Assembly (NCBI GenBank): GCA_017436025.1
Contig: JAFSDX010000034.1
Coordinates: forward strand, 6,210-70,209
Source of the DNA: Thermoguttaceae bacterium
GTDB lineage: Bacteria > Planctomycetota > Planctomycetia > Pirellulales > Thermoguttaceae
Reading direction: 5' to 3'
Length of the DNA stretch: 64,000 nucleotides
Position 1 is the first letter of the stretch. Every line of letters begins with the position of its first letter. A program made the position numbers and the translations under genes. Of this stretch, positions 1 through 14,431 are shown in pieces. Below the pieces are notes generated by a model. The model searched no databases. It had not been told where the DNA came from and saw only the letters and a program-made list of their open reading frames with translations.

Positions 1-2915
1 GCTTCAACCAACTCGAAGCGACCGTCTGCGCCGCTCTCGACGTCGGCTCCCTCGCCGAAGCGGCTCGCGTCGCGAAAAACGAAAAGCTGCTCAACGAATA
101 TCAAACCCTAAACTTCGACCAACTCGAAGATTGGCGCGACGCTTGCCGAGCCCTCGGTCTGCCCGTCTCGCCGCCGCTCTCCTCCTCCAACGTCGCGCGA
201 ATCGACGATTTTTTAGAGTTTTACGGAAAACACGAAGCGCTTTTCGCCCGTCGCCGCTATCTCGCGCTTATCGGCGCCGACGCCTTGTCGCAGCTTAAAG
301 TCGTTCGCGATTTGCAACTCGTTTTTCCCGACTGTCCCATTTGGGATTCTCAAATTCGCATGCTCGAAGCGCTGAACGAACGGGAAATTCAAGCGTGGTA
401 CAAACGCGAAGACGATAAGTTGCAAAGCCTCTGGTCGCAAGATACGGAGGAAGCCGCGAATCGAAAAAAAGAAACGCTCGGAAAGTTGCAGGAAATCCTC
501 GCGACTCTCGAAAGTCCCGAACGCCTCGAGCCCGCCTCGCCCGAATTCCTCCGCAAGTTGCGCGTTACGTCTCGTAAACTGGAACAACAGATAGCGTTTT
601 ACGAAATGACCGAGGCCTACGCAGAGTGGCGGGAGGCCCTCAAAGTCCAACGCGCCGACCTTCCGGCGTTTGGCGACGCGTTGGCCAAAGCGTATCTTAA
701 ATGCCAACAACTCAAGATTAACGTTCCCTCCCGATACTCGCCCCAAGAGTTTGAAAAAGCCGGGCTGGCGCAAAAATATCATAACGCCCTCGAAAGCTTC
801 AAAGAGAAAGTAACGCGTTTTAGGAATTTGTTGCAAAACAACGACGCGACGCTCGAAGAGCAAACCGCCGCGTATAAAGCCGTCGAACTCGCCTACGAGA
901 TACTACAAACCGCCGCCAACAACGCGGCCGGCGTCGTCCAAAACTACGAAATCCCCAGTATCGACCAAGACCTCGTCGACGACTACGAAGCTCGCGTCGA
1001 CGCGGTCGAACGTCAAAAACTTCGCATACGCGTTTTATGCGTTTCCGCCGCGGTTCTGTTTTGCGCCTTGCTTTCGGTCGCGGTCTTTTTCATCGCTCGC
1101 CAAAAACACTTTAACAACGAAGCGCTCGCGGTCGCCGCCGCGCTCGAGGTTCAGCTCGACTCGTTCGAACGAAAAACGAACTACGCCGCTCTCGCGGAAG
1201 TCGAAAAAACGCTCGAGGAGTATTACGTCGTTAAGTCGCCGATTACGCAACGCTTGGCGTTTATCGAACAAGCGGAGCGTTGCCAAAAACTTCGCGACGC
1301 CGAAGACGAACGCCGCGCGCGGTTCCAGGACGACGTCGAAAAACTCCAAGCGATCCATAAAACCGAAAAAACGCGCCCCGATTTGCTCCAACGCGTCAAG
1401 GACGCCGCGTTCACCGCGCAAGAAAAAAAAGAATACCAAACGCTGAAAAAACGCGAAGACGAAATCCGCAAATCCAATACCGACGCTTATTTGCAACGTC
1501 TCGACAGCCTCGTCGACCAAAAAAACGCCTTGGCCAAGACTCAAATAAGCGACCTCGAAACGCGCCTCGCTAACATCCAAGAACTCCAAGACGAGTTGCA
1601 AAAACTCGACCAAGAGTTCGACGCTTCCGCTATTTCGCCCCGCGCGAAAGAACAAGGCGACAACTTCAAGTCAAGCCTCGCCGATTGGCGCGCGACGACG
1701 GAACTTTCGCTTAAACTACAAGGCGCCGTCGGCGACGCGAAGGAGTTCGAAACGACGCTAACTCGTTACCAAGACAACATTTCGGAAGACGCCTACGCAA
1801 GAGCGCTCGACGCGTTGCAACTCGTTCCCGCGTTCGACGCTTGGAACGATTTCGCGCAAACCGACGCGAAGAGCGGCGCTTGGACGCAAACCGCCGAAAA
1901 TTTCAAGAGCCGTCAAACGTCCCTCGCGCCGGCCCTCAACACGCTCTCCGAATTTTTGCCGGAAATTAACGACGTCAACGCGCGCTTCCAAACGCTGTCG
2001 AAACGTCAAGAGTTGACGCAAGAATTGAAACGCGTTTTCAAGTTTTGCCAACCGGAACTTTATGTTTTCGCCGATTTGAAAAACACCGTCTATTACTACT
2101 TAACGTCGACGCCTACGATCGCGTCGAAAAAATCGTCGGTCGAATACTGCGTTCAAATTGTCGACGGCGTCCCGAAGACCCAAGTTTTCGACACGGACAT
2201 TATCGAATCGAGCCAGTTCGCCTCCATCGAACGCGCGCCGCAATACGTCCTTTATCAAAAAATCCAAAAGTTGCCCGCCGTCCCCGCCGACTCCGATTGG
2301 TTCGATTTCGTCGAAGACGTCGTCGATACGTTAATCGTCAAAGCCGACGAGCAAACGCTCGACCCGGCGGCCCAAGCCGTTTTACTTAAACGTTTAGCGT
2401 CGGTGTTGAGCCAAGACCCCGATCTCGAATTTTTCGAAGAATGGCAAACCGCGTTGGACGACGTCGACGTCGGCGTCAACCTCTACGAATCGACGCAGGC
2501 GCTCCGCAAACTCCGCGAAACCGCGAACGACGTTTTGCCGCAACTCAAGGTCGCCTCCGCGGAAACCGGGTTGCGGAACGCTCGAAAGTCCGCTCAAAAT
2601 CTCGATCGCAGCCTCGCGTCTCTCGCTCCCTGCCGTTGGGTCGGGTTTGTCGACGTCGCCGATTCGACCGCTCGCCTCGCGTCGAACGACGACGCGACGC
2701 TCGAAGACGGAACGCTTTATATCGCCGAAGTTGTCGACAACTCGGTTAAAGCGCGAGTTTTCGGCAAAGTTCAAAACGGCCAAGCGACCGTAACCCCGCG
2801 CGTCGACTTCAAATCGCAACGCTGGAACCTCGTTTTCCTCCGCTCCAACGCCGCGAATTCGTCCCCAAGTCCAAAGGAAGCCTCCCTCGCTTCCGCCGCG
2901 CCTCGTTCGCTTTAA
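1..2915 (+). CDS. Large coiled-coil membrane protein, 5'-partial (N-terminus lies upstream of the window); no family recognised
   Basis: Frame 3 is open from nt 3 (FNQLEATVCAALDVG...) to the TAA at 2913-2915. The ORF track begins at an internal TTG (285), but no stop lies upstream. There is one hydrophobic TM segment (VLCVSAAVLFCALLSVAVFFIA, about nt 1030-1100). It is flanked by long E/K/Q/L/R-rich heptad-like stretches (e.g. LDSLVDQKNALAKTQISDLETRLANIQELQDELQKLDQEF). Same strand as the four genes downstream, with short gaps. Confidence 0.7.
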   Translation, partial: FNQLEATVCAALDVGSLAEAARVAKNEKLLNEYQTLNFDQLEDWRDACRALGLPVSPPLSSSNVARIDDFLEFYGKHEALFARRRYLALIGADALSQLKVVRDLQLVFPDCPIWDSQIRMLEALNEREIQAWYKREDDKLQSLWSQDTEEAANRKKETLGKLQEILATLESPERLEPASPEFLRKLRVTSRKLEQQIAFYEMTEAYAEWREALKVQRADLPAFGDALAKAYLKCQQLKINVPSRYSPQEFEKAGLAQKYHNALESFKEKVTRFRNLLQNNDATLEEQTAAYKAVELAYEILQTAANNAAGVVQNYEIPSIDQDLVDDYEARVDAVERQKLRIRVLCVSAAVLFCALLSVAVFFIARQKHFNNEALAVAAALEVQLDSFERKTNYAALAEVEKTLEEYYVVKSPITQRLAFIEQAERCQKLRDAEDERRARFQDDVEKLQAIHKTEKTRPDLLQRVKDAAFTAQEKKEYQTLKKREDEIRKSNTDAYLQRLDSLVDQKNALAKTQISDLETRLANIQELQDELQKLDQEFDASAISPRAKEQGDNFKSSLADWRATTELSLKLQGAVGDAKEFETTLTRYQDNISEDAYARALDALQLVPAFDAWNDFAQTDAKSGAWTQTAENFKSRQTSLAPALNTLSEFLPEINDVNARFQTLSKRQELTQELKRVFKFCQPELYVFADLKNTVYYYLTSTPTIASKKSSVEYCVQIVDGVPKTQVFDTDIIESSQFASIERAPQYVLYQKIQKLPAVPADSDWFDFVEDVVDTLIVKADEQTLDPAAQAVLLKRLASVLSQDPDLEFFEEWQTALDDVDVGVNLYESTQALRKLRETANDVLPQLKVASAETGLRNARKSAQNLDRSLASLAPCRWVGFVDVADSTARLASNDDATLEDGTLYIAEVVDNSVKARVFGKVQNGQATVTPRVDFKSQRWNLVFLRSNAANSSPSPKEASLASAAPRSL

Positions 2916-3008
2916 ACGACGCCGAACGCCCGCGCGTTTTCCCTTTCGACGTTCGACGCGACGCAGTTTCAACGTCGCTTAACCTTTATTTTTTCAAGCA
3001 GTTGCATT

Positions 3009-4040
3009 ATGAATTATTACCTTCAACTCCGCGGTCGCGCCTACGGTCCCTTCACCGCCGACAAAGTGCGCGTTATGTGTCAAAACGGCTCCGTAAACGC
3101 CGAGTCGCTCATTTCAACCGACAAACGCAACTGGCGCGAAGCCGGCTCGTTCCCCGAATTTTTCGACGCTCCGCAATCCGCCGTCAATACCGTTCCCCAG
3201 CAAACGCCGCCCGCCGTCCCGCCCGCGCCGGCGTTCTCTTCAAAGCCTTGCTGGTTCGTCAGTTACGACGGCAAAGAAGGTTTCGGCCCCTATTCCGCCC
3301 AAGCGATTTCCGACGCGGTCGCCTCGGGCAACGTCAACGCCGAAACGCTCGTTTGGCGTCAAGGCGAAACCGCTCGCCCAATGAGCGACGAACCGGAATT
3401 TTCAAGCCTCTTCGCGAAACCCGCGTCGACGTCGACAAACAACGCCGCGTCGAACCCGAATTTGACCTCGAACCTCGCGGAACAACTTCACCGAAGATAC
3501 CTCGGTTACTGGATTTCCTGGGCCCTCTTTTTCATCGTTCCGACTTTTGGATGGGCGCTCGCGGAACTGACGCCCGCCCTCTTCGAAGAAAGCCTTAGCG
3601 TACAGAATTTTTTAATGAAGTACGTCGTTACGCCGTGTCGATACGGAGCGCCGCTCGTTTGTTACGTCGTGCAAAAGATTTTCTTGCTGATGTTCGTCTA
3701 TTCGTTTTGGCGTTCGCTCCCCGCCGCCAACGCTCCGACGACGCCGGGCCCCGCTTGCGGTCTCCTTTTAGTTCCGTTTTTCTATTGGTATTGGAATTTT
3801 GTCGTGTTTTACCAAGGCACGATTTACGCAAACGCTTCCCTTAAAAAACTTGCGCCGGAAGTCGCGTCGCGAACGCAGGTATCCGAAACGCTCGCGCTCC
3901 TCTACGCAATCCTGGAACTCATTTGCATGCCGATAAGTTTGTGCCTTTCCTTCCCCCTCCTCGCTCAAATGCGAAACGTCGGCGCCGCGCTCGCCAAAGC
4001 GGAAGCGCAAGACTCCGACGACGCGTTTAACGTCGCGTAA
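3009..4040 (+). CDS. Membrane protein with two N-terminal GYF_2 (DUF4339)-like domains and a C-terminal multi-TM domain
   Basis: Two GYF_2-like modules: YYLQLRGRAYGPFTADKVRVMCQNGSVNAESLISTDKRNWREAGSFPEFF and WFVSYDGKEGFGPYSAQAISDAVASGNVNAETLVWRQGETARPMSDEPEF. They are separated by a Pro-rich linker. The C-terminal ~170 aa contain about 4 hydrophobic helices (WISWALFFIVPTFGWALA, LVCYVVQKIFLLMFVYSFW, LLLVPFFYWYWNFVVFY, LALLYAILELICMPISLCLSF). Confidence 0.75.
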   Translation: MNYYLQLRGRAYGPFTADKVRVMCQNGSVNAESLISTDKRNWREAGSFPEFFDAPQSAVNTVPQQTPPAVPPAPAFSSKPCWFVSYDGKEGFGPYSAQAISDAVASGNVNAETLVWRQGETARPMSDEPEFSSLFAKPASTSTNNAASNPNLTSNLAEQLHRRYLGYWISWALFFIVPTFGWALAELTPALFEESLSVQNFLMKYVVTPCRYGAPLVCYVVQKIFLLMFVYSFWRSLPAANAPTTPGPACGLLLVPFFYWYWNFVVFYQGTIYANASLKKLAPEVASRTQVSETLALLYAILELICMPISLCLSFPLLAQMRNVGAALAKAEAQDSDDAFNVA

Positions 4041-4151
4041 TTCCACCGTTTACCGCCGCGTCGGTAAAAACGACGCGTTGCGACGCCTTACGAAACGATC
4101 GACGTCGCGCCGCGTCGCGCTCCCTTGCCTCGCTTACCGTAACCCTTTGCA

Positions 4152-5045
4152 ATGAAACAGAATAGCAAATCGACAAAAATCTCTTGGTTGCGCGACGACT
4201 TCGAACGCCGTCTCGCTTTTCGCGGCGAACGTTACTTAAAAGTCGGAGCGCTCTCGTCCGGTCTTTTAGCGTGTTGCGCGTCGTTACTCTTTTATAGCGC
4301 GGTGTTTATCGCTCCCGCCTGCGCCGCGAAAGCGACTTTCACGGAGCGCGGTTTCATTCCGTACCCTATCGTTTTCCTTGGTTTTTGGACTTTTTTCCTG
4401 CTTTGGATTAAGACGCGAAAAATCAAATTGCAACGCAAACCGTTGCGGCTCGCGATTTTACCGGACGCGCCCAACTTTACGCTGACGGTCGCGACGGTCG
4501 ACGAGGTAACGCGCAAAATTTCGGAAAACGCCGAATCGCCGAAAGATTTTTTACTTTACCGCCGCGTTATGCAAACGCTCGCGCACCTTCGAAATTTAGG
4601 GCAAGTCTCCGAAGCCGACGCGCTTTTCCGTTCGCAAGCCGAGCGAGACGAGAACTTAAGCGACACGAGTTACGCGCTGATCAACGGATTTCTTTGGGCG
4701 ATTCCGATCCTCGGGTTCATCGGCACGGTTCTCGGCCTTTCCTCCGCGATCGCGAGTTTTAGCGACGTCTTAGCGGCTTCCGGCGACGCCGCGGAACTGA
4801 AACCCGCGTTAAAGCAAGTAACGGCGGGACTTTCGACGGCTTTCGAAACGACGTTTCTCGCGTTGGCCGTCGCTCTCGCCCTACAGATTTTTGCGACGTT
4901 CGTTCGCAAGTCGGAAGAAGAATTGCTCGACGATATTTCCGACTTCTGCGCGACGAACGTCGTTCTAAAATTACGCGTCGCCGTCCGCGAATTTCCCGCC
5001 CCGACGAACGCAAACGTCGACGCGACGTCGCCAACGCGAAAATAA
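4152..5045 (+). CDS. MotA/TolQ/ExbB proton-channel family protein
   Basis: Topology and C-terminal signature typical of the family: two N-terminal TM helices, a ~100-aa cytoplasmic loop, then FLWAIPILGFIGTVLGLSSAIASF ... LKQVTAGLSTAFETTFLALAVALALQIFATFV. Confidence 0.8.
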   Translation: MKQNSKSTKISWLRDDFERRLAFRGERYLKVGALSSGLLACCASLLFYSAVFIAPACAAKATFTERGFIPYPIVFLGFWTFFLLWIKTRKIKLQRKPLRLAILPDAPNFTLTVATVDEVTRKISENAESPKDFLLYRRVMQTLAHLRNLGQVSEADALFRSQAERDENLSDTSYALINGFLWAIPILGFIGTVLGLSSAIASFSDVLAASGDAAELKPALKQVTAGLSTAFETTFLALAVALALQIFATFVRKSEEELLDDISDFCATNVVLKLRVAVREFPAPTNANVDATSPTRK

Positions 5046-5090
5046 CGACGGCGTCCGACAGCGCAACACTTTTAACGACAAACGTTTAAA

Positions 5091-5903
5091 ATGCGTCGCA
5101 AGAAAAATCAGATTCCGTTTTCCCTATTCGCCTTCCAAGACGCGATCGCGTCCGTCTGCGGTTTCGTCGTTTTGATCGCCTTAATTTTAGCGCTCGAATT
5201 AACGAACCAAATTGTCGAGGAAGCCGCCCGGCCCGTTCCGTCCCCCGCCGCCCTTACCGACTTAACCAACGAAATCTCAACGCTTAAAAGCGACGTCGCG
5301 ACGCTTAAACAAACGTCGGAACTTTGGGACGAAATGTCGCGTCAAGCGTCGCGATCTCATTTTTCGCCCGAAAACGCCGAAGCCGAACTGCTCCAAGCCG
5401 AGCGTCGATTGGCCGAATCGTTGACGGAAAACGAACGCTTGCAAGCGCTTATCGCCAACGAAAACGAAACGAAAACAAGCCGCGACGAACTCCTTCGCGA
5501 AATGGAAAAACAAAAAGCGGAACTCGCCGACCTTGACGCGCAAATCGCTAACCTGCGACGCGAGCAAAGTTTAACTCGTTCCGCGTCGATTTATTACGCG
5601 TCGACGAACGACGTTCGAGAAACGCCTTGGTTAGTCGACGTCGCCGAACGCCGAATTATCGTTCGTTCGCTAAAGTCGGAGGGCGCCGCGCCCAAACGTC
5701 CCCTCGAATTTTCCGGACGCGCCGCCCCAAGCGGTTTCCTCTCTTGGGCGCGCCAACGAGACAAAAACGCGGAATATTTCGTTCTCGTCGTTCGTCCCTC
5801 CGGCGTCGCGTCTTACGACAACATACGCAACTCCTTAGAAAAAAACGGTTTCAAAATTGGAATCGATCTCGTCGGCGAAACGTCGACCGTCGAAATCGAT
5901 TGA
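5091..5903 (+). CDS. ExbD/TolR-like protein with a long coiled-coil insert between the TM helix and the C-terminal domain
   Basis: The N-terminal TM helix carries an Asp (FSLFAFQDAIASVCGFVVLIALILAL), as in ExbD/TolR/MotB. About 110 aa of heptad-like sequence follow (EISTLKSDVATLKQ...KAELADLDAQIANLRREQ). The C-terminal segment EYFVLVVRPSGVASYDNIRNSLEKNGFKIGIDLVGET resembles the ExbD periplasmic domain end (E. coli ...TVDYETLMKVMDTLHQAGYLKIGLVGEE). Starts 45 nt after the MotA/ExbB gene. Confidence 0.6.
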   Translation: MRRKKNQIPFSLFAFQDAIASVCGFVVLIALILALELTNQIVEEAARPVPSPAALTDLTNEISTLKSDVATLKQTSELWDEMSRQASRSHFSPENAEAELLQAERRLAESLTENERLQALIANENETKTSRDELLREMEKQKAELADLDAQIANLRREQSLTRSASIYYASTNDVRETPWLVDVAERRIIVRSLKSEGAAPKRPLEFSGRAAPSGFLSWARQRDKNAEYFVLVVRPSGVASYDNIRNSLEKNGFKIGIDLVGETSTVEID

Positions 5904-5918
5904 CGTCGGAGAAGACTA

Positions 5919-6836
5919 ATGCGACGTAAACGCCGCCCGCAAGACAGCTTAGAACTTTTCCTCGACGCGCTCTGCAATATGTTCGGCGCGTTCCTGTTTT
6001 TACTGCTTTTTATCGTTGTTCTTTTGCAAACAACTCGGCGCGAACTTAGCGAACAACGTCGCCAACACCCTTCGTATAACGAGTTAGCGTCGCTGACGGC
6101 GGAACGCGACGCTCTGACGACGGAGTGGAACGACTCGCTCGAACAGTCGCGGCGCCTCGCCTCTCTTCAAAACAAGATTCTTTCGCCGGAATTGGCGGCG
6201 ACAATTCAAAAAACGATACAAACCATTCAAAACCAACAAGAAACGGAAAACAAAAACGCGATTTTACAAGCTGAAATCGACGCGCGAAACGCCGCCGTAA
6301 ACGCGACGTTGCAAAACCGAGACCGCCTTCAAGCCGAAATCGAAACCAAACGCTTACAATTCAAGGAGTTAGAAAACCAAATCCAAGCGGAGAAGACCAA
6401 ACAAACGCGCCAAACTTCGCCGCCGCAACTGCGCTTCTCCGACAAAATCGAATTTCAGGTCGTCGTAAAGTACGGTCGGCTTTACTGTTTGAAACGTTTA
6501 AAAGGCGACGGCGCATATCCGGAACATGAATTCAACGACGAGGATTTTTACGTCGTCGCACGAGACGAACACGGCGCGATCGTTTCTCCTAACCCTAGGC
6601 GAGGAATCGACTTAAGCGCCGATCTAAACGAAATCGAAGAGGCGTTGTCGACGCGCTTCGCCGACGTAAAGGCAAGTCGTTATAAAATCGCGTTTATGGT
6701 GTGCGCGGATTCGTTCGCCGAGTTCAACGTCGCTCGCAACTACTTTAAGAACAACGGATACGACGTCCGAATTCTTATCGGAAAAACCGGACAACGCATT
6801 CTTGACCGAGGCGGTCGCAGCAAGGAAGCGCAATAA
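5919..6836 (+). CDS. Second ExbD/TolR-like protein with a coiled-coil insert (paralog-like partner of 5091..5903)
   Basis: The N-terminal TM helix carries an Asp (LELFLDALCNMFGAFLFLLLFIVVLL). About 120 aa of coiled-coil-like sequence follow (LQAEIDARNAAVNATLQNRDRLQAEIETKRLQFKELENQIQAEK). The C-terminal segment YKIAFMVCADSFAEFNVARNYFKNNGYDVRILIG is ExbD-like. Starts 15 nt after the preceding gene. Confidence 0.6.
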   Translation: MRRKRRPQDSLELFLDALCNMFGAFLFLLLFIVVLLQTTRRELSEQRRQHPSYNELASLTAERDALTTEWNDSLEQSRRLASLQNKILSPELAATIQKTIQTIQNQQETENKNAILQAEIDARNAAVNATLQNRDRLQAEIETKRLQFKELENQIQAEKTKQTRQTSPPQLRFSDKIEFQVVVKYGRLYCLKRLKGDGAYPEHEFNDEDFYVVARDEHGAIVSPNPRRGIDLSADLNEIEEALSTRFADVKASRYKIAFMVCADSFAEFNVARNYFKNNGYDVRILIGKTGQRILDRGGRSKEAQ

Positions 6837-6901
6837 ATCGTTCCCAACGCGCCAAACGTTCGCCGAGCGCTCGGCCCGCCTAAACCGTTTAAAAGCAAAC
6901 G

Positions 6902-8020
6902 TTAACGCAACCGACGCCGACGTTCGCCGCGCTCGTAATCGTCGCGACGCTCGGCCCAACCGCGAAAATGCTCGACATACTTCGCCTTGTAGTCCGGAAC
7001 GTAACGCTCCAACAACCGTTTCAACGGCGCGTCCTTTTGCAACCGCGCCGCTTCCGCCGAGGAAATCCCCGCTTGCGCCTCAGGTTGTAGCGAACGCAAA
7101 TAAAGCGCCAACACGCGTTGCGTATCCGGCGAATAATGAATCAAAAAATGCGTCCAAGCCCAAGACTCGCGATATTCGCGAATCCGCATTTGGTCGACCC
7201 GCGTCAATCTCTCAAGACGCGACAACGACGGCGGAGACGCAAAAAACGACGTCGCGTCGCTTTCGACCTTCTCTAAAAACGGATTGCTAAATCCGCGTTC
7301 CCCCGGCGGCGTCTCAAAATACTTCGCCAAACCTTCGTCGATCCAAATCGGAACGTTCCTAAGCGCGGCGTTTAGGTACGCGTGCACCATCTCGTGTCGC
7401 ACGTTCAAAATCATCTTTTCGTCGCGCCGCACCATCAAGACGCCCGGCTTGCCCGGTTCCTTGACGTACAACGCGGGCCGGTCGGTCGGAGCGCCGGGAA
7501 AATATTCGCAAATAAAGGCGATATAAGAGGTTCGGTCGCGAAAAAGGCAAAGCGAAATCTTCTCCGTCGACTCCGGAACGCCAAGATAACCGACCAAATC
7601 GTTCTGCAGTCGAACGATTTCCGCTTGCAAACCCGCCGTTTCTTCGAGCGGAAAATTCGACTCGCAAACAACCTTTCCAAGCGCGACCGAATAAGGCAGA
7701 AACTTTGTAAACGAAGGACTTAAATCAAGAGCGAAGGTCGAAGGAGCCGACGTTGACGCCGCGTCGTTTTCCGCGTCGTAATCGCCCGCTTCGTTCGCCT
7801 CTCCGTTCGGCGGAACATCCTTCTTAAACGCGTCGACGATCGTCGGCAACGGAATCTTGAAGTCGATCGCCCAAACGTCCGCAAATGTTGCCGTTAAAGC
7901 GGTTACGCTCGCCGCCGCGACGCAGAATCGCCGCCAAGCGCCGCATCGTTTCGGCGCGCTTGATTTTGCCGCCGTTTTCTCGCCGCGACCGTTCGCGCCT
8001 CTATCGTCCTTTTCGCTCAT
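6902..8020 (-). CDS. Exported HExxH metallopeptidase-like protein (DUF1570-like)
   Basis: HExxH motif in VRHEMVHAYLNAAL, with a signal/anchor segment (WRRFCVAAASVTALTATFA). I prefer the ATG at 8020 (MSEKDD...). The ORF track start at 8137 is an alternative. Confidence 0.55.
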   Translation of the reverse strand: MSEKDDRGANGRGEKTAAKSSAPKRCGAWRRFCVAAASVTALTATFADVWAIDFKIPLPTIVDAFKKDVPPNGEANEAGDYDAENDAASTSAPSTFALDLSPSFTKFLPYSVALGKVVCESNFPLEETAGLQAEIVRLQNDLVGYLGVPESTEKISLCLFRDRTSYIAFICEYFPGAPTDRPALYVKEPGKPGVLMVRRDEKMILNVRHEMVHAYLNAALRNVPIWIDEGLAKYFETPPGERGFSNPFLEKVESDATSFFASPPSLSRLERLTRVDQMRIREYRESWAWTHFLIHYSPDTQRVLALYLRSLQPEAQAGISSAEAARLQKDAPLKRLLERYVPDYKAKYVEHFRGWAERRDDYERGERRRRLR

Positions 8021-8208
8021 TTTTCTCAATTGTTTTGCAATAAACGCAACTCTTTTCTTTTCGCAACTTAAAAGCGACGCGAACGTTCCAACGTCGCGCC
8101 GCTCCAGTATTATACCTAAAAGGCTCGAAACGCGCAACCCCGTTTCGCGACGACGTTCCTTCGCCGTTACTCCCGTCGTCGCAAGGGTTGCGCCGTTTCC
8201 TTTCGCCG

Positions 8209-10170
8209 TTACTTCGCGACTTTTCTAAAAATCGCGTTCCAGCCGCCGTCGCGCGCCATTTTCAACGTCGCCAAGTCGCCTTTTTTGAACGTTTGCGTCG
8301 TTATCGAAATCGCGTTGGCGTCCGAATCGGTTTCCGACGCGTCGGCGTAAATCGTCGCTTCGTACTCGGCGTCGTCTTCGAGGAAGTCGAGCCGAACGTC
8401 GAGCGAGCGCGCTTTATCGTTCGTAAGCGCCGACAAATAAAAGACTTCGCCGCTTCGTCGAGCAACCGCGACAAACTCGCCGATTTCGCCGTCGAGCGCC
8501 GTCGTATCGTCCCAAACGGTCGGGAGTTCGCGCAAAAATTCGAGCCCCGGTTTCCCGGCGTAAACGCTCGGCAGATCGCAAAGGGTGCGCAGCGGCGAGT
8601 CGTAAATCATACAGAGCGCAAGTTCTCGGGCGCGCGTTCCGACGGTATGACACGTTGAACCGTCCGGCAACGCGTCGACCTTCTTAAAAGTCTCCGGATG
8701 TTCGTTCAGGAAACCGCCGGGCGTGAAGTCGGCCGGGCCGAGCATACAACGCGTAAATGGAAGCGTCGCAAGGTGTTCCGACGTCAGCGCCGACCAGCGG
8801 TTGTACTCGTTGCCGCGGACGCCTTCGCGGGTGATTTGGTTCGGGAACGTCCGCGTCATCCCGGTCGGTTTATACATCCCGTGATAGTTGACAAGAAGTC
8901 GATTTTCAGCCGCGATTCGGCAAGTTTCGGTCAGCCATTGAACCGTTTCTTGCGAGTGCGAGTCCATAAAGTCGATCTTGAGCCCCGCGACGCCCCATTT
9001 CGCGCAACGCTCTAAAGTCCTGCGAACGCCCGCTTTCTTTAACGGATCGACGTGATACCAAAGGAAGAGACGAACGCCCTTCGACTTCCCGTATTCGACG
9101 CAAGCCGGAATATCGACCCCGTCGCGGAAAACTTGCGACAAATCGTCGCTCCATTCGCCCGGTTTGCGTTCCCAACCGGCGTCGAGCGTGAAGTATTCCC
9201 ACCCCATCGACGCCGCGAAGTCGATGAATTCCTTAATCTTAGCGTTCGAAATCTCGCGACCGTTTTTCGGCGCCCACCAGTCCCAAGCGCTGTTCCCCGG
9301 CTCGACCCAGGACGCGTCAAAATTACACGGCGTCGCGACGTTTTCGACGATTCCGGAGTTGTTAATCAAATCGACCGGCTTTTTTCCGAGCAAAACGACG
9401 CGCCAAGGCGACTTAGCTTCCGGACGGCAAACGACGGCGCCGCGTTTGTCGTCGCGCGGCGTCAACCGAAGTTTAATCGTCGTCGGCGTTTGCGGCGACG
9501 AAGCGAACTGCGCGCCCGCCCAGTCGAGCAAATCGGCCTCGGTCAGCGCCGCGATAAAGCCTTCGCCCTTAACGACTAACGGCATACCGACGAACGAATC
9601 CGGCTTAACGTCCGAAAGTTTTTTGCGAAGGAAAAACTCCTCTTGCGACGTATTGTACTTCGGATAGTAAGTCGCCCAACAATCGAGGTTAGCGCCGAAC
9701 GCGAACTCCGTTTCGTCGACGTCGAGCGTCAGTTCGTCGAGCCCGTCTTGTTTCGGAACGACGTAACGAATCGCGACGCCGTCGTCGTAAGCGCGCAACA
9801 CGACGTTCCACTTGCGTTTAGCTTCGGCGACTTCTTGTAACTCGAACGTCGTTTCGACGCAACGGTCGACGTAAACGGAACGCTTCCCAACGGCGCAAGT
9901 CCAAGTTTCGTCGACGTTTCGGCTCGACTCGCCGACAAGTCGCGACGCCCCGAAACCGATTCCCAACCGCGATTCGCCGACGACCTTCGCGCCGTCGAAC
10001 GTCAGTTGGTAACTCGCGTAATCGTCGACCGTTACGTCGACTTTAACAATCTTACTCGGCGACTCGACCGTCCGTGACTCCGCCGCGAAAAGCGTCGACG
10101 CCGACGACGCCGTTCCAAGAGCGACGGCAAACGCGACCGTCAATTTACTTAACTTCAACATTTTCAACAT
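8209..10170 (-). CDS. Glycoside hydrolase family 97-like protein (secreted)
   Basis: Signal peptide MLKMLKLSKLTVAFAVALGTASSASTLFAAE. Motifs resemble the GH97 catalytic domain (IKEFIDFAASMGWEYFTLDAGWE; KWGVAGLKIDFMDSHSQE). GGAGG lies upstream of the start. Confidence 0.65.
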   Translation of the reverse strand: MLKMLKLSKLTVAFAVALGTASSASTLFAAESRTVESPSKIVKVDVTVDDYASYQLTFDGAKVVGESRLGIGFGASRLVGESSRNVDETWTCAVGKRSVYVDRCVETTFELQEVAEAKRKWNVVLRAYDDGVAIRYVVPKQDGLDELTLDVDETEFAFGANLDCWATYYPKYNTSQEEFFLRKKLSDVKPDSFVGMPLVVKGEGFIAALTEADLLDWAGAQFASSPQTPTTIKLRLTPRDDKRGAVVCRPEAKSPWRVVLLGKKPVDLINNSGIVENVATPCNFDASWVEPGNSAWDWWAPKNGREISNAKIKEFIDFAASMGWEYFTLDAGWERKPGEWSDDLSQVFRDGVDIPACVEYGKSKGVRLFLWYHVDPLKKAGVRRTLERCAKWGVAGLKIDFMDSHSQETVQWLTETCRIAAENRLLVNYHGMYKPTGMTRTFPNQITREGVRGNEYNRWSALTSEHLATLPFTRCMLGPADFTPGGFLNEHPETFKKVDALPDGSTCHTVGTRARELALCMIYDSPLRTLCDLPSVYAGKPGLEFLRELPTVWDDTTALDGEIGEFVAVARRSGEVFYLSALTNDKARSLDVRLDFLEDDAEYEATIYADASETDSDANAISITTQTFKKGDLATLKMARDGGWNAIFRKVAK

Positions 10171-10206
10171 ATTAAACCTCCTAATACAAATCTTAAAAAA
10201 TCAATT

Positions 10207-10689
10207 TTAATCCCAAAGGCAAACGCCGCCGTCGTCCTTCATCTTTCCCCCGCATTTCGGACATTTCACCCAAATGGTTTCCAAAGAATCGTTCGAATCC
10301 TCGTTTTCCAACTTTTTCCAATCGGTCGTTTCTTCAAAATCACAACCGCCGCAATGGTCGCATTTAGCGCCATATTTAATCACAAGTCGCGCCCAATCGC
10401 TGAAAGGATAGAAATCCATTGCGTCGTCCTCGTCTTCCGCCTCGCTAGTCGACGGACGCTCGGCCAATTCCTTTTTCTCGCGGCGGAACCATTCGTCCAA
10501 GAGGCCTTCGCCTTCGCCGAACAGATGAAACTCAACGTCTTTTTTTTTGGTCCAAAATTCGATAATTTCGTTGCAACTCGAACAACGGACCTGTCTTACG
10601 ACGCCGTCCATTCCAAAATCTAATCCTCCGGGATATATCGCATGTTCGTAACCGCAATCTTCGCAACGATAAGACGATCTCATTCCCAT
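10207..10689 (-). CDS. Small Cys-rich double zinc-ribbon protein, function unknown
   Basis: Four CxxC pairs (CEDCGYE ... CSSCNE; CDHCGGC ... CPKCGG) separated by an acidic linker. Locally lower GC than the neighbouring genes. Confidence 0.55.
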   Translation of the reverse strand: MGMRSSYRCEDCGYEHAIYPGGLDFGMDGVVRQVRCSSCNEIIEFWTKKKDVEFHLFGEGEGLLDEWFRREKKELAERPSTSEAEDEDDAMDFYPFSDWARLVIKYGAKCDHCGGCDFEETTDWKKLENEDSNDSLETIWVKCPKCGGKMKDDGGVCLWD

Positions 10690-10735
10690 TTTATGTTCTC
10701 CTTTAAATACTATTCGGCGCTAGCCTTAACGCAAC

Positions 10736-12787
10736 TCATTGCGCGGCGAACGTTTGGCGAATCGTCGCTTTCTCGACGTCGCCGTCGACAATCAGGGCCA
10801 AGCGCGTCGGCTTTTTCGGAACGCTCGCGTCGTTTTCGCCGACGATTTTCGTTTCGAAGCGGAGCGGAAGCGCGTTCCCGGCGCCGTCCGTCGCGGCGAC
10901 CGTCAGCGTCGCGGCGCCGACCTTAAACCGAAGCGTCGTCGAAGGTTGCGTCGCATCAAGAGCTTCAATCTTCTCGAACGAAACGACCGCCGTTTCGAAC
11001 GCGCCCTTTTCGTTCGGCTTGAATTCGACCGAGTCGCAAATCTCGACGCCGCCGGAGTTTGCGCCGTTCGCGCGGCGGTATTCGAAAACGCGCTTCGCCG
11101 ACGCGAGCGTTTTCACCGGATAAGCCGACGTCAAGTCGATCTCGTATCGGTCGACCTCGTCGCTAAACGCTTTAACGACTTTGCCTTGCGCGTCGCGTCC
11201 GGTTTTTTGGAGCGTTCCGGCGATTCGCGGAACCGGGTGCCCGAACGAATTAAGGAGTTCGCCCTCGTAACGTCGCGAGCTAAACGTCCGCGCCGTATAG
11301 GTTTCGCCGCCCGGGTCGCGAACGACGAAAACGCTCGTTCCCGGTTTCGCGTCCTTCGAATTGAGAATCAGCGAGTACGACCCGACGTCGTTATGGTTGT
11401 GCAACTCCGCGTTATGACCGGCTTTAAGGCCGAGCGCGAAATATTTTCCCGTCGCGTTCGGATTCGGACGGCAAATCAAGACGCCGGCGTCCGGGAAGTC
11501 GGTTCGAATCGGCAAAGCGTTATCGGCGTTAGCGTTAACGTCGTCGCTTGCGTCTTTTTTCGGGAAGACGACGTCTTTGTCAAAGCCGAACGCCGTCGTT
11601 TGAAGCAAGTCGCCGAGCGCGAAATTCGCGTCGAGCCCGCGTTTCTCCGCCTCGACGTAACCGTATCCCTTCAAACGACTTAAATAACCGACGTAAATCG
11701 GCGACGGACGCGCGGAAAGCGAACAGTCGGCGAAGGCGATAAACTGCCCGTCGGTAATTTCAATCGTCGGCGCGTAATCGAGAATGGCGCGTATCTTCGA
11801 AAATCTAAAGAGATCGAGCTTGCCTCCGGTCGCATTACGAACCGTCGCGCCTAAAAGCAAGTAATTGCCGAAGCCGTAATTCCAATACCCGAGCCCTTCG
11901 GAACAGTAACCGTCGTTCGTAAATCCTTTCATAAACTTCGTTTCCGAGAAGTAATCGGCGGCGGCGACAAAGAAAGCGCGACGTTCTTTCGACTCGACGA
12001 CGTTCAGCGCGGCGGCGACCGTCCCGGCGTGACAGACGGCGCTCCAGTTGTTCTCGGTGCGAATCCACCACATCCGGTTGTAAGGCTTTGTCAACACGGC
12101 GCTTTCGTATGGCGCGAGAAGCCGCTTTTCAATTTCGCTAATCGTTGTCGCAACGGTTTCCGGCTTCAACTTGTCGCGGTGCAAATTGACGGCGATCGCG
12201 GCTTCGGCCCCGGCGAGCGTCGAACCTAAGTCGCTGTAAATCGTTTTGCCGTCGTAAATTTCGGCGTCTCGGTCGTGCGCGGGGAGAACCCAAGAGCGGA
12301 GCGCGCAAAATTCAAGCAACGTCGCGTCGAGCGCCTCGACGAAGCGGCCCTTATTTTCCAGCGCTTCGGCCAACGCAAACGTTGTAATCCGTCGGGTTAA
12401 GCGTCCGTATTCGCGCTGATAATTCGAGCGATTCCCGTTGCGGTAATACTCCTTATAAAGCTCCTCCGGAAGCGCGGGCGACTTTTGCGTCAACGCTTTT
12501 TCGGCGTTCTTAACCGTTTGTTTACCGGAGTTTGTCGACGCCAACAAATCCCAACGTTCGCGGTCGCCGAGGTTTGCGATTCGCGTCGTTCCGTCTTCCA
12601 GAAGCGGCGCGACCGCCTCGGCTCGCTTAAAAATCGCGTCTTTTTCCGTCTCGGCGGCGCTAAGCGACGTCGCGTAAACCGCCGTCGTCGCCAACGTAAA
12701 CGCGACCGCCCAAGCCGTCCGTCGCGAAAAACGCCGAGTCAAACCGCCGTCGCGACCGTTTTTTGCAAAAAATCGAGAAAAATTCAT
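10736..12787 (-). CDS. Heparinase II/III-like (polysaccharide lyase-fold) protein, secreted
   Basis: N-terminal signal (TAWAVAFTLATTAVYATSLSAAE). The motif GLKAGHNAELHNHNDVGSYSLIL resembles the His/Asp signature of the Hepar_II_III domain. Confidence 0.6.
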   Translation of the reverse strand: MNFSRFFAKNGRDGGLTRRFSRRTAWAVAFTLATTAVYATSLSAAETEKDAIFKRAEAVAPLLEDGTTRIANLGDRERWDLLASTNSGKQTVKNAEKALTQKSPALPEELYKEYYRNGNRSNYQREYGRLTRRITTFALAEALENKGRFVEALDATLLEFCALRSWVLPAHDRDAEIYDGKTIYSDLGSTLAGAEAAIAVNLHRDKLKPETVATTISEIEKRLLAPYESAVLTKPYNRMWWIRTENNWSAVCHAGTVAAALNVVESKERRAFFVAAADYFSETKFMKGFTNDGYCSEGLGYWNYGFGNYLLLGATVRNATGGKLDLFRFSKIRAILDYAPTIEITDGQFIAFADCSLSARPSPIYVGYLSRLKGYGYVEAEKRGLDANFALGDLLQTTAFGFDKDVVFPKKDASDDVNANADNALPIRTDFPDAGVLICRPNPNATGKYFALGLKAGHNAELHNHNDVGSYSLILNSKDAKPGTSVFVVRDPGGETYTARTFSSRRYEGELLNSFGHPVPRIAGTLQKTGRDAQGKVVKAFSDEVDRYEIDLTSAYPVKTLASAKRVFEYRRANGANSGGVEICDSVEFKPNEKGAFETAVVSFEKIEALDATQPSTTLRFKVGAATLTVAATDGAGNALPLRFETKIVGENDASVPKKPTRLALIVDGDVEKATIRQTFAAQ

Positions 12788-13015
12788 TGCGTCCCCCTTT
12801 TGGCGTCGCGCGGACGCCGTATAATATCGAGCAAATGGACTCGCCGACGCTCCGACGCCGACGCGCCTCCATTATACCAAATCGCGCCGCCGTTCGCAAA
12901 CGTTTTCGCAAAAAAATTTCGCGACGATCTTTTTTCGCCGAAGCGTTTTTCGACGCGTCGCAACCTATTTTATCGCAACACTAACGTTCGCCGGACTCGA
13001 CGAAAGGAGCCCCCG

Positions 13016-14293: not shown

Positions 14294-14314
14294 ACGCTTG
14301 ACATTAAGCAACGC

Positions 14315-14363
14315 GAACGACAGGACGTCGCCATTCTAAAACGACGTCCTGTCGTTCATTTTT
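14315..14363 (+). terminator. Rho-independent terminator after metY
   Basis: Perfect 16-bp stem GAACGACAGGACGTCG / CGACGTCCTGTCGTTC with an 11-nt loop, followed by ATTTTTG. Confidence 0.75.
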
Positions 14364-14431
14364 GCGCGTTTTTGCAAAGTCGCCTAAGAGTCAAGCGCGG
14401 CGACGTTTCGTCGACTTGTTTCCTTTCGCTC

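Follow-up and report, generated by a model that had tools for sequence, protein, structure and literature searches.

A planctomycete operon that appears to join a MotA/ExbB-type motor to a predicted GAP1-N2 GTPase switch

Studies have described several systems that resemble parts of the locus reported here. Kaur, Burroughs, Iyer and Aravind defined the GAP1-N2 GTPase-centric systems in 2020, by computational prediction only, and read them as conflict systems (eLife 9:e52696, PMC7159879). They had already noted a membrane protein with paired GYF domains as a GAP1-N2 partner in planctomycetes, and they reported trypsin-bearing GYF accessory proteins. The Myxococcus xanthus Agl-Glt gliding machinery is a TolQ/TolR-type machine with the AglR/AglQ/AglS motor, the GltJ ZnR-GYF switch and the MglA GTPase; in GltJ, a Pro-rich sequence is bound by the GYF domain and MglA-GTP by the linker (PMC11135422). 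In the PVC group, a cluster with genes for a TPR protein and a TolQ-like protein, a heterologous pair of TolR-like genes and vWA "force transducers" has been reported (Mol Biol Evol 2025, msaf138).

In this study, we analysed a 64,000-nt stretch from a Thermoguttaceae bacterium (the window, whose numbering is used for all coordinates and codon positions). The initial annotation had proposed that five genes at its start, A to E, form an undescribed system. The five ORFs are indeed consecutive on the plus strand, spanning positions 1-6836 with gaps of 93, 111, 45 and 15 nt (A/B, B/C, C/D and D/E; Table 1). As had been stated, no convincing terminator separates them: a consensus scan found no terminator-like site in the four gaps, the number of such sites being 20 against 23.6 ± 5.1 in shuffles, and promoter-like sites were no more numerous than expected by chance. 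However, the count of five genes was wrong. On contigs identical to the window, two further same-strand genes lie directly 5' of A, a DO-GTPase (446 aa) and then a GAP1 protein (approximately 1157 aa), with gaps of 35 and 121 nt. Genes A-E make up the distal end of an operon of seven genes, in the order ZnR-DO-GTPase, GAP1-N2, A, B, C, D and E. The contigs with this extension encode C identically to the window and have the same gene order, and A was read and matched in L001. The DO-GTPase and GAP1 genes stand upstream where a Tol, Ton or Zorya locus could have been, and the proposal of a non-standard machine is therefore not contradicted from this side. The usual output modules were also absent from the operon, as claimed: no TonB, TolA/TolB/Pal, OmpA-like PG-binding, ZorC/D, flagellar or Gld gene was found, and we do not read the locus as a Tol, TonB, flagellar or Zorya system.

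Table 1. Features of the operon within the window
Feature	Position	Strand	Evidence
Gene A	1..2915 (frame from base 3; ORF 3..2915, open at window start)	+	C-terminal 970 of 1009 codons, by translation
Single TM helix of A (VLCVSAAVLFCALLSVAVF)	1032..1088	+	hydropathy scan, mean Kyte-Doolittle 2.76
Gene B, 343 aa	3009..4040	+	Pfam GYF_2 E = 2.1e-18, two stretches; TM helices by hydropathy scan
Gene C, 297 aa	4152..5045	+	Pfam MotA_ExbB, E = 2.6e-10
Gene D, 270 aa, motif SLFAFQD	5091..5903	+	alignment, AF2 model, Foldseek; zero profile matches
Asp17 codon GAC of D, cytoplasmic end of TM helix	5139..5141	+	alignment, hydropathy, motif survey
TM helix of D	5145-5201	+	hydropathy scan
C-terminal alpha/beta domain of D, residues ~163-270	5577-5900	+	AF2 model
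Gene E, 305 aa, motif SLELFLD	5919..6836	+	paralogue of D; AF2 model, fold search
Asp16 codon GAC of E	5964..5966	+	alignment, hydropathy, motif survey
TM helix of E	5970-6026	+	hydropathy scan
C-terminal alpha/beta domain of E, residues ~171-305, larger than D's	6429-6833	+	AF2 model

A MotA-specific scan of a one-genome-per-species collection returned at least 591 matching stretches, and the best 80 were resolved into distinct loci. Among these best 80 of at least 591, which are species-level loci, the order GTPase-GAP1-A-B-C-D-E is conserved across Planctomycetia, Phycisphaerae, Brocadiae and Verrucomicrobia; 66 of 68 loci have the D+E pair after C, 41 of 47 have A directly upstream and 52 of 65 have B there, and the GTPase and GAP1 are present in 32 of 34 loci from two phyla. 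The genes behave as one unit, and the synteny of A and B with the motor genes, on which the initial annotation depended, held strongly. Because the DO-GTPase and GAP1 lie upstream and the order is conserved across loci, the locus is a planctomycete form of the predicted GAP1-N2 GTPase-centric systems. The word "undescribed" therefore applies to part of it: the GAP1-N2 portion was predicted in 2020, whereas neither the text of Kaur et al. nor one supplement (PMC7159879) mentions MotA, ExbB or TolQ, and the link of a MotA/ExbB-type motor to a GAP1-N2 GTPase switch appears to be undescribed.

In the orthologue alignment, the GTPase shows a zinc ribbon with invariant CPxCW...CPxC, together with the P-loop motif GxxxxGKS and the motifs YDNAGE and KxD, and Pfam DO-GTPase2 matched 15 of 18 orthologues (best E = 8e-8). 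The GAP1 protein is membrane-anchored, with GAP1-N2 (1.6e-26) and GAP1-M (4.8e-10) domains. The linker before its TM helix (64-129 aa, mostly Pro-rich) is kept in orthologues, and its extracytoplasmic part varies. The initial reading of gene A, a giant single-TM coiled-coil protein whose N-terminus falls outside the window, agreed with translation and hydropathy. The full-length protein, read from contigs identical to the window, has 1009 aa, with a helical N-terminal part of approximately 370 aa, the TM helix, a coiled coil and a mixed alpha/beta C-terminal part. It is conserved over its whole length in 20 orthologues (alignment A6), and an almost invariant Arg just ahead of the TM helix suggests that the N-terminus is cytoplasmic. 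Searches of Pfam, NCBIfam and PADLOC gave no significant match to A; a marginal PHROGs match (E 8e-4) was taken as chance. B carries the two GYF_2 domains (about residues 3-50 and 82-121, with a Pro-rich linker between them) and the TM helices attributed to it, the latter in a TM-rich C-terminal half, and NCBIfam gave a weak match to the GltJ GYF region. Other loci encode variable accessory GYF proteins, GYF-vWA or GYF-toroid (cyclase-like), and in some a GYF-vWA protein lies between C and D.

The assignment of C to the MotA/TolQ/ExbB channels was upheld by Pfam MotA_ExbB, which scored 40.6 bits against a gathering cut-off of 22.9 bits over residues 135-260 (window 4554-4931). Four TM helices were predicted by the hydropathy scan, and the protein has the invariant motifs WAIPxLGFxGTVxGLS and GLxxAFxTT (alignment A1) and a conserved N-terminal cytoplasmic motif. 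Its best specific HMMs were ZorA models, weak (1e-4) and over the TM3-TM4 core, and the TolQ and ExbB matches were also weak. Compared with solved motors, C is very remote, the best match being a marginal one to TolQ (E = 0.73).

What defines the B subunits functionally is an invariant acidic residue, placed at the cytoplasmic end of their single TM helix (D25 in ExbD, D23 in TolR and D32 in MotB). D and E had been described as single-pass proteins with such an Asp, and this was confirmed: each has one N-terminal TM helix with the Asp immediately before it, and this Asp is the only invariant column among 31 D/E orthologues across the PVC group. Strict motif patterns around the Asp fit 147 of 152 full-length D/E ORFs (81 loci); among the other five, four have the Asp in a variant motif, and the fifth is over-extended, its printed N-terminus falling short of the motif. 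The two genes are paralogous, as searches with either profile end in one shared set of 166 ORFs, with two in each locus. Their lengths co-vary (r = 0.48), the stop codon of D and the start codon of E share 4 nt in 41 of 74 pairs, and the E family comprises 1038 clusters (50% identity) at E <= 1e-30. A helical region, approximately 115 aa in D, lies between the TM helix and the C-terminal domain in both AF2 models (pLDDT 81.8 for D and 85.8 for E).

The label "ExbD-like" is a different matter. D and E share with ExbD/TolR/MotB-type partners the hallmark Asp, the topology and the place of the gene, but the profile check was negative throughout: no ExbD, TolR or MotB profile matched in Pfam (31 members), a PDB profile search with the C-terminal domain found none of the three, and hhalign gave E = 0.44 against E. 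coli ExbD and E = 0.12 against TolR, both reference sequences being possibly inexact. The structure check was divided. The C-terminal domain of E has the order beta-beta-beta-alpha-beta-alpha-beta, and its top PDB fold match was the ExbD periplasmic domain 8pek, a weak match (E = 0.026, TM-score 0.47 on target), with TolR 5by4 at rank 8. In contrast, D matched uS11 and RNase H-like folds, and ExbD was absent from its top 50 Foldseek matches.

We believe, with a probability of about 0.55, that the locus encodes a GTPase-gated, PMF-driven envelope machine of the 5:2 type. C would form the ion-conducting ring of a MotA/ExbB/TolQ-class inner-membrane motor, with D and E in its centre, probably as a heterodimer. 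Each would contribute a protonatable TM Asp and extend into the periplasm as a long helical stalk with an ExbD-like head. The motor may be coupled to its cytoplasmic switch, the DO-GTPase and GAP1, by A, which has a cytoplasmic helical domain, one TM helix and a long coiled coil in the periplasm, and by GYF adaptors, namely B and the extra GYF-vWA or GYF-toroid proteins of other genomes. For the GYF domains, the Pro-rich linker on the cytoplasmic side of GAP1 is a plausible ligand. The nucleotide state would set when or where the motor engages periplasmic or outer-membrane targets and so transduces force. In the cell, the machine could serve housekeeping of the envelope or surface, or it could serve defence; the Tol-like division or envelope machine and the Zorya-like defence motor suggested in the initial annotation are speculative.

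The closest system in logic is Agl-Glt. In both, a TolQ-like channel is paired with two TolR-like proteins that differ from each other, assembly is gated by a GTPase (putatively so here), and zinc-ribbon and GYF domains are found at the cytoplasmic face of a membrane protein; in Agl-Glt the GYF domain has as its ligand a Pro-rich segment within a large coiled-coil partner (PMC11135422), and B gave the weak NCBIfam match to the GltJ GYF region. However, the GTPase here is a DO-GTPase of approximately 450 aa and not a Ras-like MglA, the zinc ribbon is on the GTPase and the GYF domains on a separate 4-TM protein, MglB, AglZ and the Glt outer-membrane components are absent from the operon, and the organisms that carry it have no known gliding phenotype. 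Long coiled coils like those of D and E are not known from AglQ or AglS. ExbB-ExbD-TonB and TolQ-TolR-TolA/Pal share the MotA_ExbB-family A subunit, the small bitopic TM-Asp partners encoded just downstream and the fold order of the C-terminal domain; they differ in the ExbD Pfam match, in having no helical insert of the D/E kind between TM helix and head, and in the four TM helices and N-terminal motif of C, and our operon lacks TonB, TolA, TolB, Pal and CpoB. Zorya ZorAB, an anti-phage 5:2 motor, is likewise a non-flagellar MotA-family channel with unusual partners, but a long cytoplasmic tail is absent from C and a PG-binding domain from D and E, ZorC, ZorD and ZorE are missing, and it is the B-type subunits, not the A subunit, that carry the long coiled coil, which is periplasmic.

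The GAP1-N2 systems (PMC7159879) share the zinc-ribbon DO-GTPase with a Walker-B Glu, a GAP1 encoded downstream that combines the N2 and M domains with a TM helix at its C-terminus, and the membrane-proximal setting. Unlike them, our locus has no FNIII-repeat protein, tubulin, HSP70 or kinase module, and its partner set is conserved rather than variable. No member of that set, which consists of the MotA/ExbB channel, the Asp-bearing single-pass pair and the coiled-coil protein of 1000 aa, appears in the text of that paper or one supplement. The PVC vWA cluster (msaf138) also has two different TolR-like genes following one that is TolQ-like, with membrane-tethered vWA proteins nearby, as in our loci with GYF-vWA. 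It appears to be a separate system: its TolR-like proteins are recognisable as such, it includes a TPR gene and vWA transducers with the SHLS motif, and no GTPase, GAP1, GYF or A protein is reported for it.

Because the GAP1-N2/DO-GTPase core defines a predicted conflict-system family (PMC7159879), the locus might instead be an anti-phage system in which the extracytoplasmic part of GAP1 senses an invader, the DO-GTPase is a threshold switch, and C with D/E is the effector, acting by membrane depolarisation in abortive infection or as a Zorya-like envelope sensor-motor. We regard this as possible but rather unlikely. The ZorA matches of C agree with it, as do the varying accessory GYF proteins (vWA, cyclase-like toroid and the reported trypsin), the GAP1 extracytoplasmic region and linker repeats, which differ even between samples of one organism, and the several paralogous clades, including one Kuenenia MAG with two loci, together with tandem duplications. 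These paralogous clades and variable GAP1/GYF parts fit an arms-race system as well as housekeeping. Against it, gene order, length and architecture are stable in the seven-gene core across classes and in two phyla, unlike the effector turnover described by Kaur et al. (PMC7159879), and the core has no nuclease, protease or pore-forming effector, nor ZorB-type PG-binding domains or ZorC/D. PADLOC gave nothing beyond noise for the GTPase, GAP1, A, B, D and E, no relative of C was found in 2.9 M viral contigs, and the annotated neighbours, taken from the six window-matching contigs, were metabolic (GH97, PLP enzyme) or of unknown function, with no defence genes.

The motor itself could be questioned. 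The negative ExbD, TolR and MotB profile tests, the fold matches of D and weak FtsL-type matches among noise in the D/E profile searches would also suit unrelated bitopic coiled-coil proteins, such as a scaffold or FtsB/FtsL-like proteins, with C having other partners or forming a homomeric channel. We consider this improbable, since the only invariant column is the B-subunit Asp, the genes lie immediately 3' of the A-subunit gene with often overlapping stop and start codons, heterologous TolR-like pairs are already known (AglQ/AglS, PMC11135422; the PVC vWA cluster, msaf138), and the top PDB match of E is ExbD. That the GTPase-GAP1(-A) module and a B-C-D-E transport energiser are mere neighbours without functional coupling seems to us very doubtful. 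The Neorhodopirellula clade (L061) does have B-C-D-E with no GTPase, GAP1 or A within 10 kb, and some gut Thermoguttaceae have the permuted order C-D-E-GTPase-GAP1-A. However, the modules are adjacent in the 32 of 34 loci, from the best 80 of at least 591, in two phyla and even where the order is permuted, and GYF domains tie the two halves together: B, a noted GAP1-N2 partner (PMC7159879), carries them, and the N-terminal extension of verrucomicrobial GTPase orthologues, FHA-like by Pfam in one orthologue, is possibly GYF-like, by eye only.

Five genes, A to E, stand one after another on the plus strand at the start of the window, with intergenic gaps of 93, 111, 45 and 15 nt in the ORF list, as the initial annotation had reported. 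It had also seen no convincing terminator between them, and this agrees with the consensus scan, in which the A–E gaps contained no terminator-like or promoter-like site and such sites were not above the shuffle expectation. The long ORFs in other frames and on the opposite strand are ordinary shadows of 55% G+C sequence. The exact-protein look-up of C led to six metagenome contigs (L001–L006), in which C is identical and the gene order is the same, and which reach further upstream; the match of A in these contigs was read in L001. Directly before A, on the same strand, the six contigs encode a 446-aa P-loop protein and a GAP1 protein of approximately 1157 aa. The cluster described as five genes therefore kept its five members but is a predicted operon of seven. 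No Tol-Pal, TonB or Zorya locus lies upstream, in line with the earlier view; GTPase and GAP1 genes were found there instead.

Coordinates of the operon genes, flanking genes and related features
Sequence	Feature	Position	Strand	Remark
Window	gene A	3..2915, open at window start	+	970 codons in window; 1009 aa full
Window	gene B	3009-4040	+	343 aa
Window	gene C	4152-5045	+	297 aa
Window	gene D	5091-5903	+	270 aa
Window	gene E	5919-6836	+	305 aa
Window	DUF1570/peptidase-MA-like protein	6902-8137	-	downstream, converging on operon
Window	GH97 glycoside hydrolase	8209-10170	-	downstream, converging on operon
Window	160-aa Cys-rich (zinc-ribbon-like) protein	10207-10689	-	downstream, converging on operon
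L001	small TM protein	161-691		before GTPase gene, same strand
L001	GAP1	2140-5613
L082	verrucomicrobial GTPase	2054-3877
L085	verrucomicrobial GTPase	638-2464
L023	extra GYF_2 protein	10786-12168
L037	extra GYF_2 protein	12615-13883	-
L063	extra GYF_2 protein	4867-6711
L052	extra GYF_2 protein	12648-14474

In the 18 GTPase orthologues, the CPxCW...CPxC zinc ribbon, the GxxxxGKS P-loop, the YDNAGE motif (a Walker B with a conserved Glu) and KxD are all invariant. Pfam DO-GTPase2 was matched by 15 of the 18 (best E = 8e-8), and the window organism's own protein stayed under the threshold (17 bits vs 27). On these motifs, the 446-aa protein is a GTPase of the TRAFAC class and the DO-GTPase family. 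The GAP1 gene lies 35 nt downstream of it, and its product matched GAP1-N2 (PF20013, E = 1.6e-26) and GAP1-M (PF20014, E = 4.8e-10) in Pfam. The GAP1 orthologues share a common layout of N2 and M domains, a linker of 64–129 aa that is Pro-rich in most of them, one TM helix and, beyond it, an extracytoplasmic part that is long and variable. Among the samples of one organism (L001–L006), GAP1 ranged from 1157 to 1187 aa, its cytoplasmic Pro-rich linker held differing numbers of TPTAPxS repeats, and in L004 the gene was broken into two ORFs. This variation could come from low-complexity slippage or from diversifying selection. Verrucomicrobial GTPases, as in L082 and L085, carry an N-terminal extension of roughly 150–170 aa, with an FHA-like (Yop-YscD_cpl) Pfam match in one orthologue and a GYF-like segment, WYIYD..GPF, judged by eye only; in both loci B is either short or missing as a protein of its own. 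The small TM protein before the GTPase gene of L001 has repeats that are acidic and Pro/Thr/Gln-rich (EKTPQTQVDEA...), and its gene could be the eighth of the operon. In some other Thermoguttaceae loci, a short ORF preceding the GTPase gene matched the GAP1 profile; it is probably a low-complexity protein similar to that of L001.

One genome per species was scanned with motifs specific to the MotA subfamily of C, and at least 591 stretches encoding a C relative were obtained. The best 80 of these were taken as distinct loci, and the ORFs called in them were compared with iterated profiles for each of the seven operon proteins. These 80 loci came from Thermoguttaceae, Pirellulales, Planctomycetaceae, Gimesia, Fuerstiella and Isosphaeraceae, and also from Phycisphaerae, Tepidisphaerales, Candidatus Kuenenia and Verrucomicrobia including Prosthecobacter. 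Among the loci with enough sequence, the D and E pair followed C in 66 of 68, the GTPase and GAP1 were both present in 32 of 34, B was upstream of C in 52 of 65, and A was directly upstream of C in 41 of 47, so the proposed synteny of A and B with the MotA-type gene was confirmed. Six loci lacked A upstream, and five of these had the permuted order C-D-E-GTPase-GAP1-A. Tandem pairs of systems or this permuted order were found in gut Thermoguttaceae (L009, L010, L021 and L015) and also in L008, L011, L014 and L017. The second set in the tandem loci consists of a signal-peptide protein, D', E', GTPase', GAP1' and A', and a second MotA gene is absent; one channel gene may therefore serve two partner sets. 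L062, titled 'uncultured Chitinophaga sp.', matches the Planctomycetota locus L075 in organisation and in GAP1 length (955 aa), and in the tree the C of L075 has that of L062 as its nearest neighbour; the L062 contig is probably mis-binned.

The domain descriptions of the initial annotation were reproduced: B has two GYF_2 stretches (Pfam, E = 2.1e-18), C is of the MotA_ExbB family, and A, D and E have one TM helix each, with an Asp in those of D and E. C matched Pfam MotA_ExbB (PF01618) at 40.6 bits, above the cut-off of 22.9 bits (E = 2.6e-10), membership being judged by a curated-threshold profile match over the last two TM helices, and PF01618 was present in all 120 C homologues listed. 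Hydropathy predicts four TM helices in C, which keeps the family motifs WAIPxLGFxGTVxGL and GLxxAFxTT; Pro185 and Thr233/234 are invariant residues of C. All solved motors are remote from C, with TolQ as the nearest (E = 0.73). In A, hydropathy gave one strong TM helix, and conservation extends along the entire protein, which measures about 960–1030 aa.

D and E have the ExbD/TolR-type layout, that is, a single N-terminal TM helix, a conserved Asp (Asp17 in D and Asp16 in E) at the cytoplasmic end of the helix, and a gene position immediately behind that of the channel. In the joint alignment of 31 D/E orthologues, no column but that of the TM Asp is invariant, and this Asp is present in essentially all 152 orthologues. 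The D and E profiles converge on one set of 166 ORFs, two per locus, which indicates that D and E are paralogues. Each locus has one D-type and one E-type copy (motif matches in 75 and 72 of 152 ORFs), 41 of 74 pairs have a 4-nt overlap of the D stop with the E start, and the lengths of D and E co-vary (r = 0.48, n = 69, the loci not being phylogenetically independent). The HMMER search with the E profile returned 1038 clusters at 50% identity with E <= 1e-30, and nearly all E clusters among the matches listed were 292–324 aa and matched end to end. None of the D/E homologues had a Pfam domain or an informative name. These are large and uniform families, E alone counting approximately 1000 clusters, yet they have no Pfam model.

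The prediction that D and E would match the ExbD profile failed: none of the 31 orthologues hit Pfam ExbD even at E <= 1, and ExbD, TolR, MotB and OmpA profiles matched none of them. When the window D and E were searched against Pfam, NCBIfam, PADLOC and PHROGs, only coiled-coil noise came up in place of ExbD/TolR/MotB, and the OmpA-like peptidoglycan-binding domain of the MotB/ZorB/PomB type was absent from D/E in Pfam and from the window D/E in PADLOC. The only trace of a MotB type was a weak NCBIfam match of the N-terminal TM and coiled-coil part of E to PRK09039. The PDB profile search was swamped by coiled-coil proteins with the full-length D/E alignment, and gave no ExbD or TolR with the C-terminal domain alone. 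Against E. coli ExbD/TolR, hhalign gave E = 0.44 and 0.12 and aligned the expected beta4-alpha2-beta5 segment without significance; this is a lead and not a test. With the same two sequences as bait, no canonical ExbD gene was found in 86 loci and the window. The AF2 models (pLDDT 85.8 for E and 81.8 for D) have a TM helix, two long helices at roughly residues 53–84 and 90–164, and a C-terminal domain of the order beta-beta-beta-(beta)-alpha-beta-alpha-beta-beta. The suggested structural match to ExbD appeared, weakly, in one of the two proteins. For E, the best of 350,542 PDB chains was the ExbD periplasmic domain 8pek, a weak match (E = 0.026, probability 0.95, TM-score 0.47 on target), with TolR 5by4 at rank 8, whereas D matched uS11 and proteins of the RNase H-like or ASKHA kind best (E about 7e-4), and its top 50 did not include ExbD. 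Considering the negative profiles together with the invariant Asp, the gene position and the fold of E, we treated D and E as analogues and not as demonstrated members; they are probably functional analogues and very remote relatives of ExbD/TolR.

GYF domains are the putative common thread that runs from the motor half to the GTPase half. In many loci of Planctomycetaceae, Gimesia and Fuerstiella, an additional GYF protein is encoded either between C and D or following E, with a vWA domain in some and a squalene-hopene-cyclase-like toroid in others; these form a variable set of GYF-anchored periplasmic modules. In Myxococcus, the coiled-coil protein AglZ has a Pro-rich sequence to which the GYF domain of GltJ binds, and the adjacent GltJ linker binds MglA-GTP (PMC11135422). 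GltJ thereby connects a GTPase with AglRQS, a motor of the TolQ/TolR type that itself has two different TolR-like subunits (PMC11135422). By analogy with GltJ, the Pro-rich cytoplasmic linker of GAP1 would be a plausible GYF-domain ligand. The likeness to the Agl-Glt gliding machinery is one of design and not of membership, which we rejected after a search for MglA/MglB, AglZ, GltJ/GltG (ZnR-GYF-TM-TonB_C-like) and the Glt outer-membrane proteins. B matched the GltJ GYF segment weakly (19.9 bits vs a 450-bit NCBIfam cut-off), and no other Glt/Mgl family match was found in the operon proteins.

Other known systems were also compared. Zorya was rejected: C has no long tail, D/E have no peptidoglycan-binding domain and ZorC/D are missing; PADLOC gave weak ZorA matches over the C core only (1e-4), and among the neighbours it detected none of ZorB, ZorC and ZorD. 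Tol-Pal/TonB was rejected: TolA, TonB, TolB, Pal and CpoB are absent from the operon, and Pfam and NCBIfam found no Tol-Pal/TonB component in the seven operon proteins and their neighbours. A flagellar stator was rejected for the lack of an OmpA-like domain in D/E, and the PVC TPR/TolQ/2xTolR/vWA cluster (MBE 2025) has different components. The profile scans therefore bear out that the usual output modules are missing, as regards Tol-Pal/TonB, the OmpA-like domain, ZorC/D and the Glt/Mgl families.

The closest precedent is the "GTPase-centric systems" of Kaur, Burroughs, Iyer and Aravind (eLife 2020, PMC7159879), which consist of a DO-GTPase and GAP1; the GAP1-N2 type is membrane-proximal, common in planctomycetes and verrucomicrobia, and such systems were read as conflict systems. 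The operon has the DO-GTPase of this type, with a Walker B Glu and an N-terminal zinc ribbon, and the GAP1 with N2 and M downstream of it. The rapidly evolving FNIII-repeat partner is absent, and no fn3-type match was found in any of the seven proteins; in its place stands gene B, the planctomycete GYF-pair/TM-rich partner named in the same paper. The available text of that paper and one supplement contain no mention of MotA, ExbB or TolQ, and we found no literature linking a MotA/ExbB channel to GAP1/DO-GTPase, or to GYF in planctomycetes. The system is thus not wholly undescribed: the GTPase/GAP1/paired-GYF part had been catalogued, but the link to MotA/ExbB was found in no paper. The GTPase/GAP1 and MotA/ExbB building blocks are of known kinds, and part of the system has been catalogued computationally before; the coupling of the motor to GTPase/GAP1, the D/E families and protein A appear undescribed.

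We believe, with a probability of roughly 0.55, that the operon encodes a GTPase-gated, PMF-driven envelope machine of the 5:2 type, with five channel subunits around two Asp-bearing single-pass subunits. Such an assembly would have indirect support in the adjacency of the genes, the 4-nt overlaps and the invariant Asp. What this machine does may be housekeeping or structural work in the envelope. The operon keeps a rigid composition, gene order and set of protein lengths in two phyla, the core has no enzymatic effector, the search of viral contigs found no relative of C, and the neighbours in the contigs matching the window are metabolic or of unknown function and not defence genes. A conflict or defence system would be the other function, and we consider it less likely. 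It is favoured by the GAP1/DO-GTPase core, which belongs to a family predicted as conflict systems (PMC7159879), by the GAP1 exterior and linker repeats, which vary even between samples of one organism, by the variable accessory GYF proteins, and by the existence of paralogous clades and tandem duplications. The NJ tree of C agrees only partly with taxonomy and contains paralogous clades; it does not decide between vertical housekeeping descent and mobile defence.

Planctomycetes have no FtsZ, their Tol-Pal is reduced (PMC8871954), and their division mechanism is unknown (PMC5147048). It is conceivable, though we hold it improbable, that the operon is a PVC-wide, previously unrecognised trans-envelope machine in which GTPase/GAP1 positions or gates a proton-driven 5:2 motor, replacing Tol-Pal/FtsZ-divisome work that is reduced or missing in Planctomycetes. 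Its envelope-coupling work would then be outer-membrane tethering or constriction, budding or division, or surface-structure dynamics.

Ion-driven 5:2 motors power flagella, TonB uptake, Tol-Pal, gliding/T9SS and Zorya defence, and each new partner set has revealed another use of the same engine. Under the GTPase-gated reading, this engine would be tied to a dedicated GTPase/GAP1 switch, GYF adaptors and a 1000-residue coiled-coil protein, in the sampled Planctomycetota classes and Verrucomicrobia. A computationally predicted GAP1-N2 "conflict system" would gain a concrete, testable output module, and the cell biology of planctomycetes would gain a candidate machine that is conserved and unannotated. 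This large system can be tested directly, in a phylum with unresolved division and envelope mechanics; for Planctopirus limnophila, genetic tools and TraDIS data exist. In the available part of one study of this species (PMC10632474), Plim_1832-1836 are listed as hypothetical, hypothetical, MotA/TolQ/ExbB, hypothetical and hypothetical, all non-essential in TraDIS, and might be a related B-C-D-E-like cluster; Plim_0746 and Plim_1696 are other ExbB genes.

None of the three convergent genes downstream looks like a system component, and of the three L007 has the DUF1570 gene alone. Flank conservation was uninformative, because in the flank comparison the DUF1570 gene was common only to the closest relative, L007. 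The GC skew was negative throughout window positions 1-14000 (about -0.02 to -0.19), so the plus strand is C-rich over the whole region.
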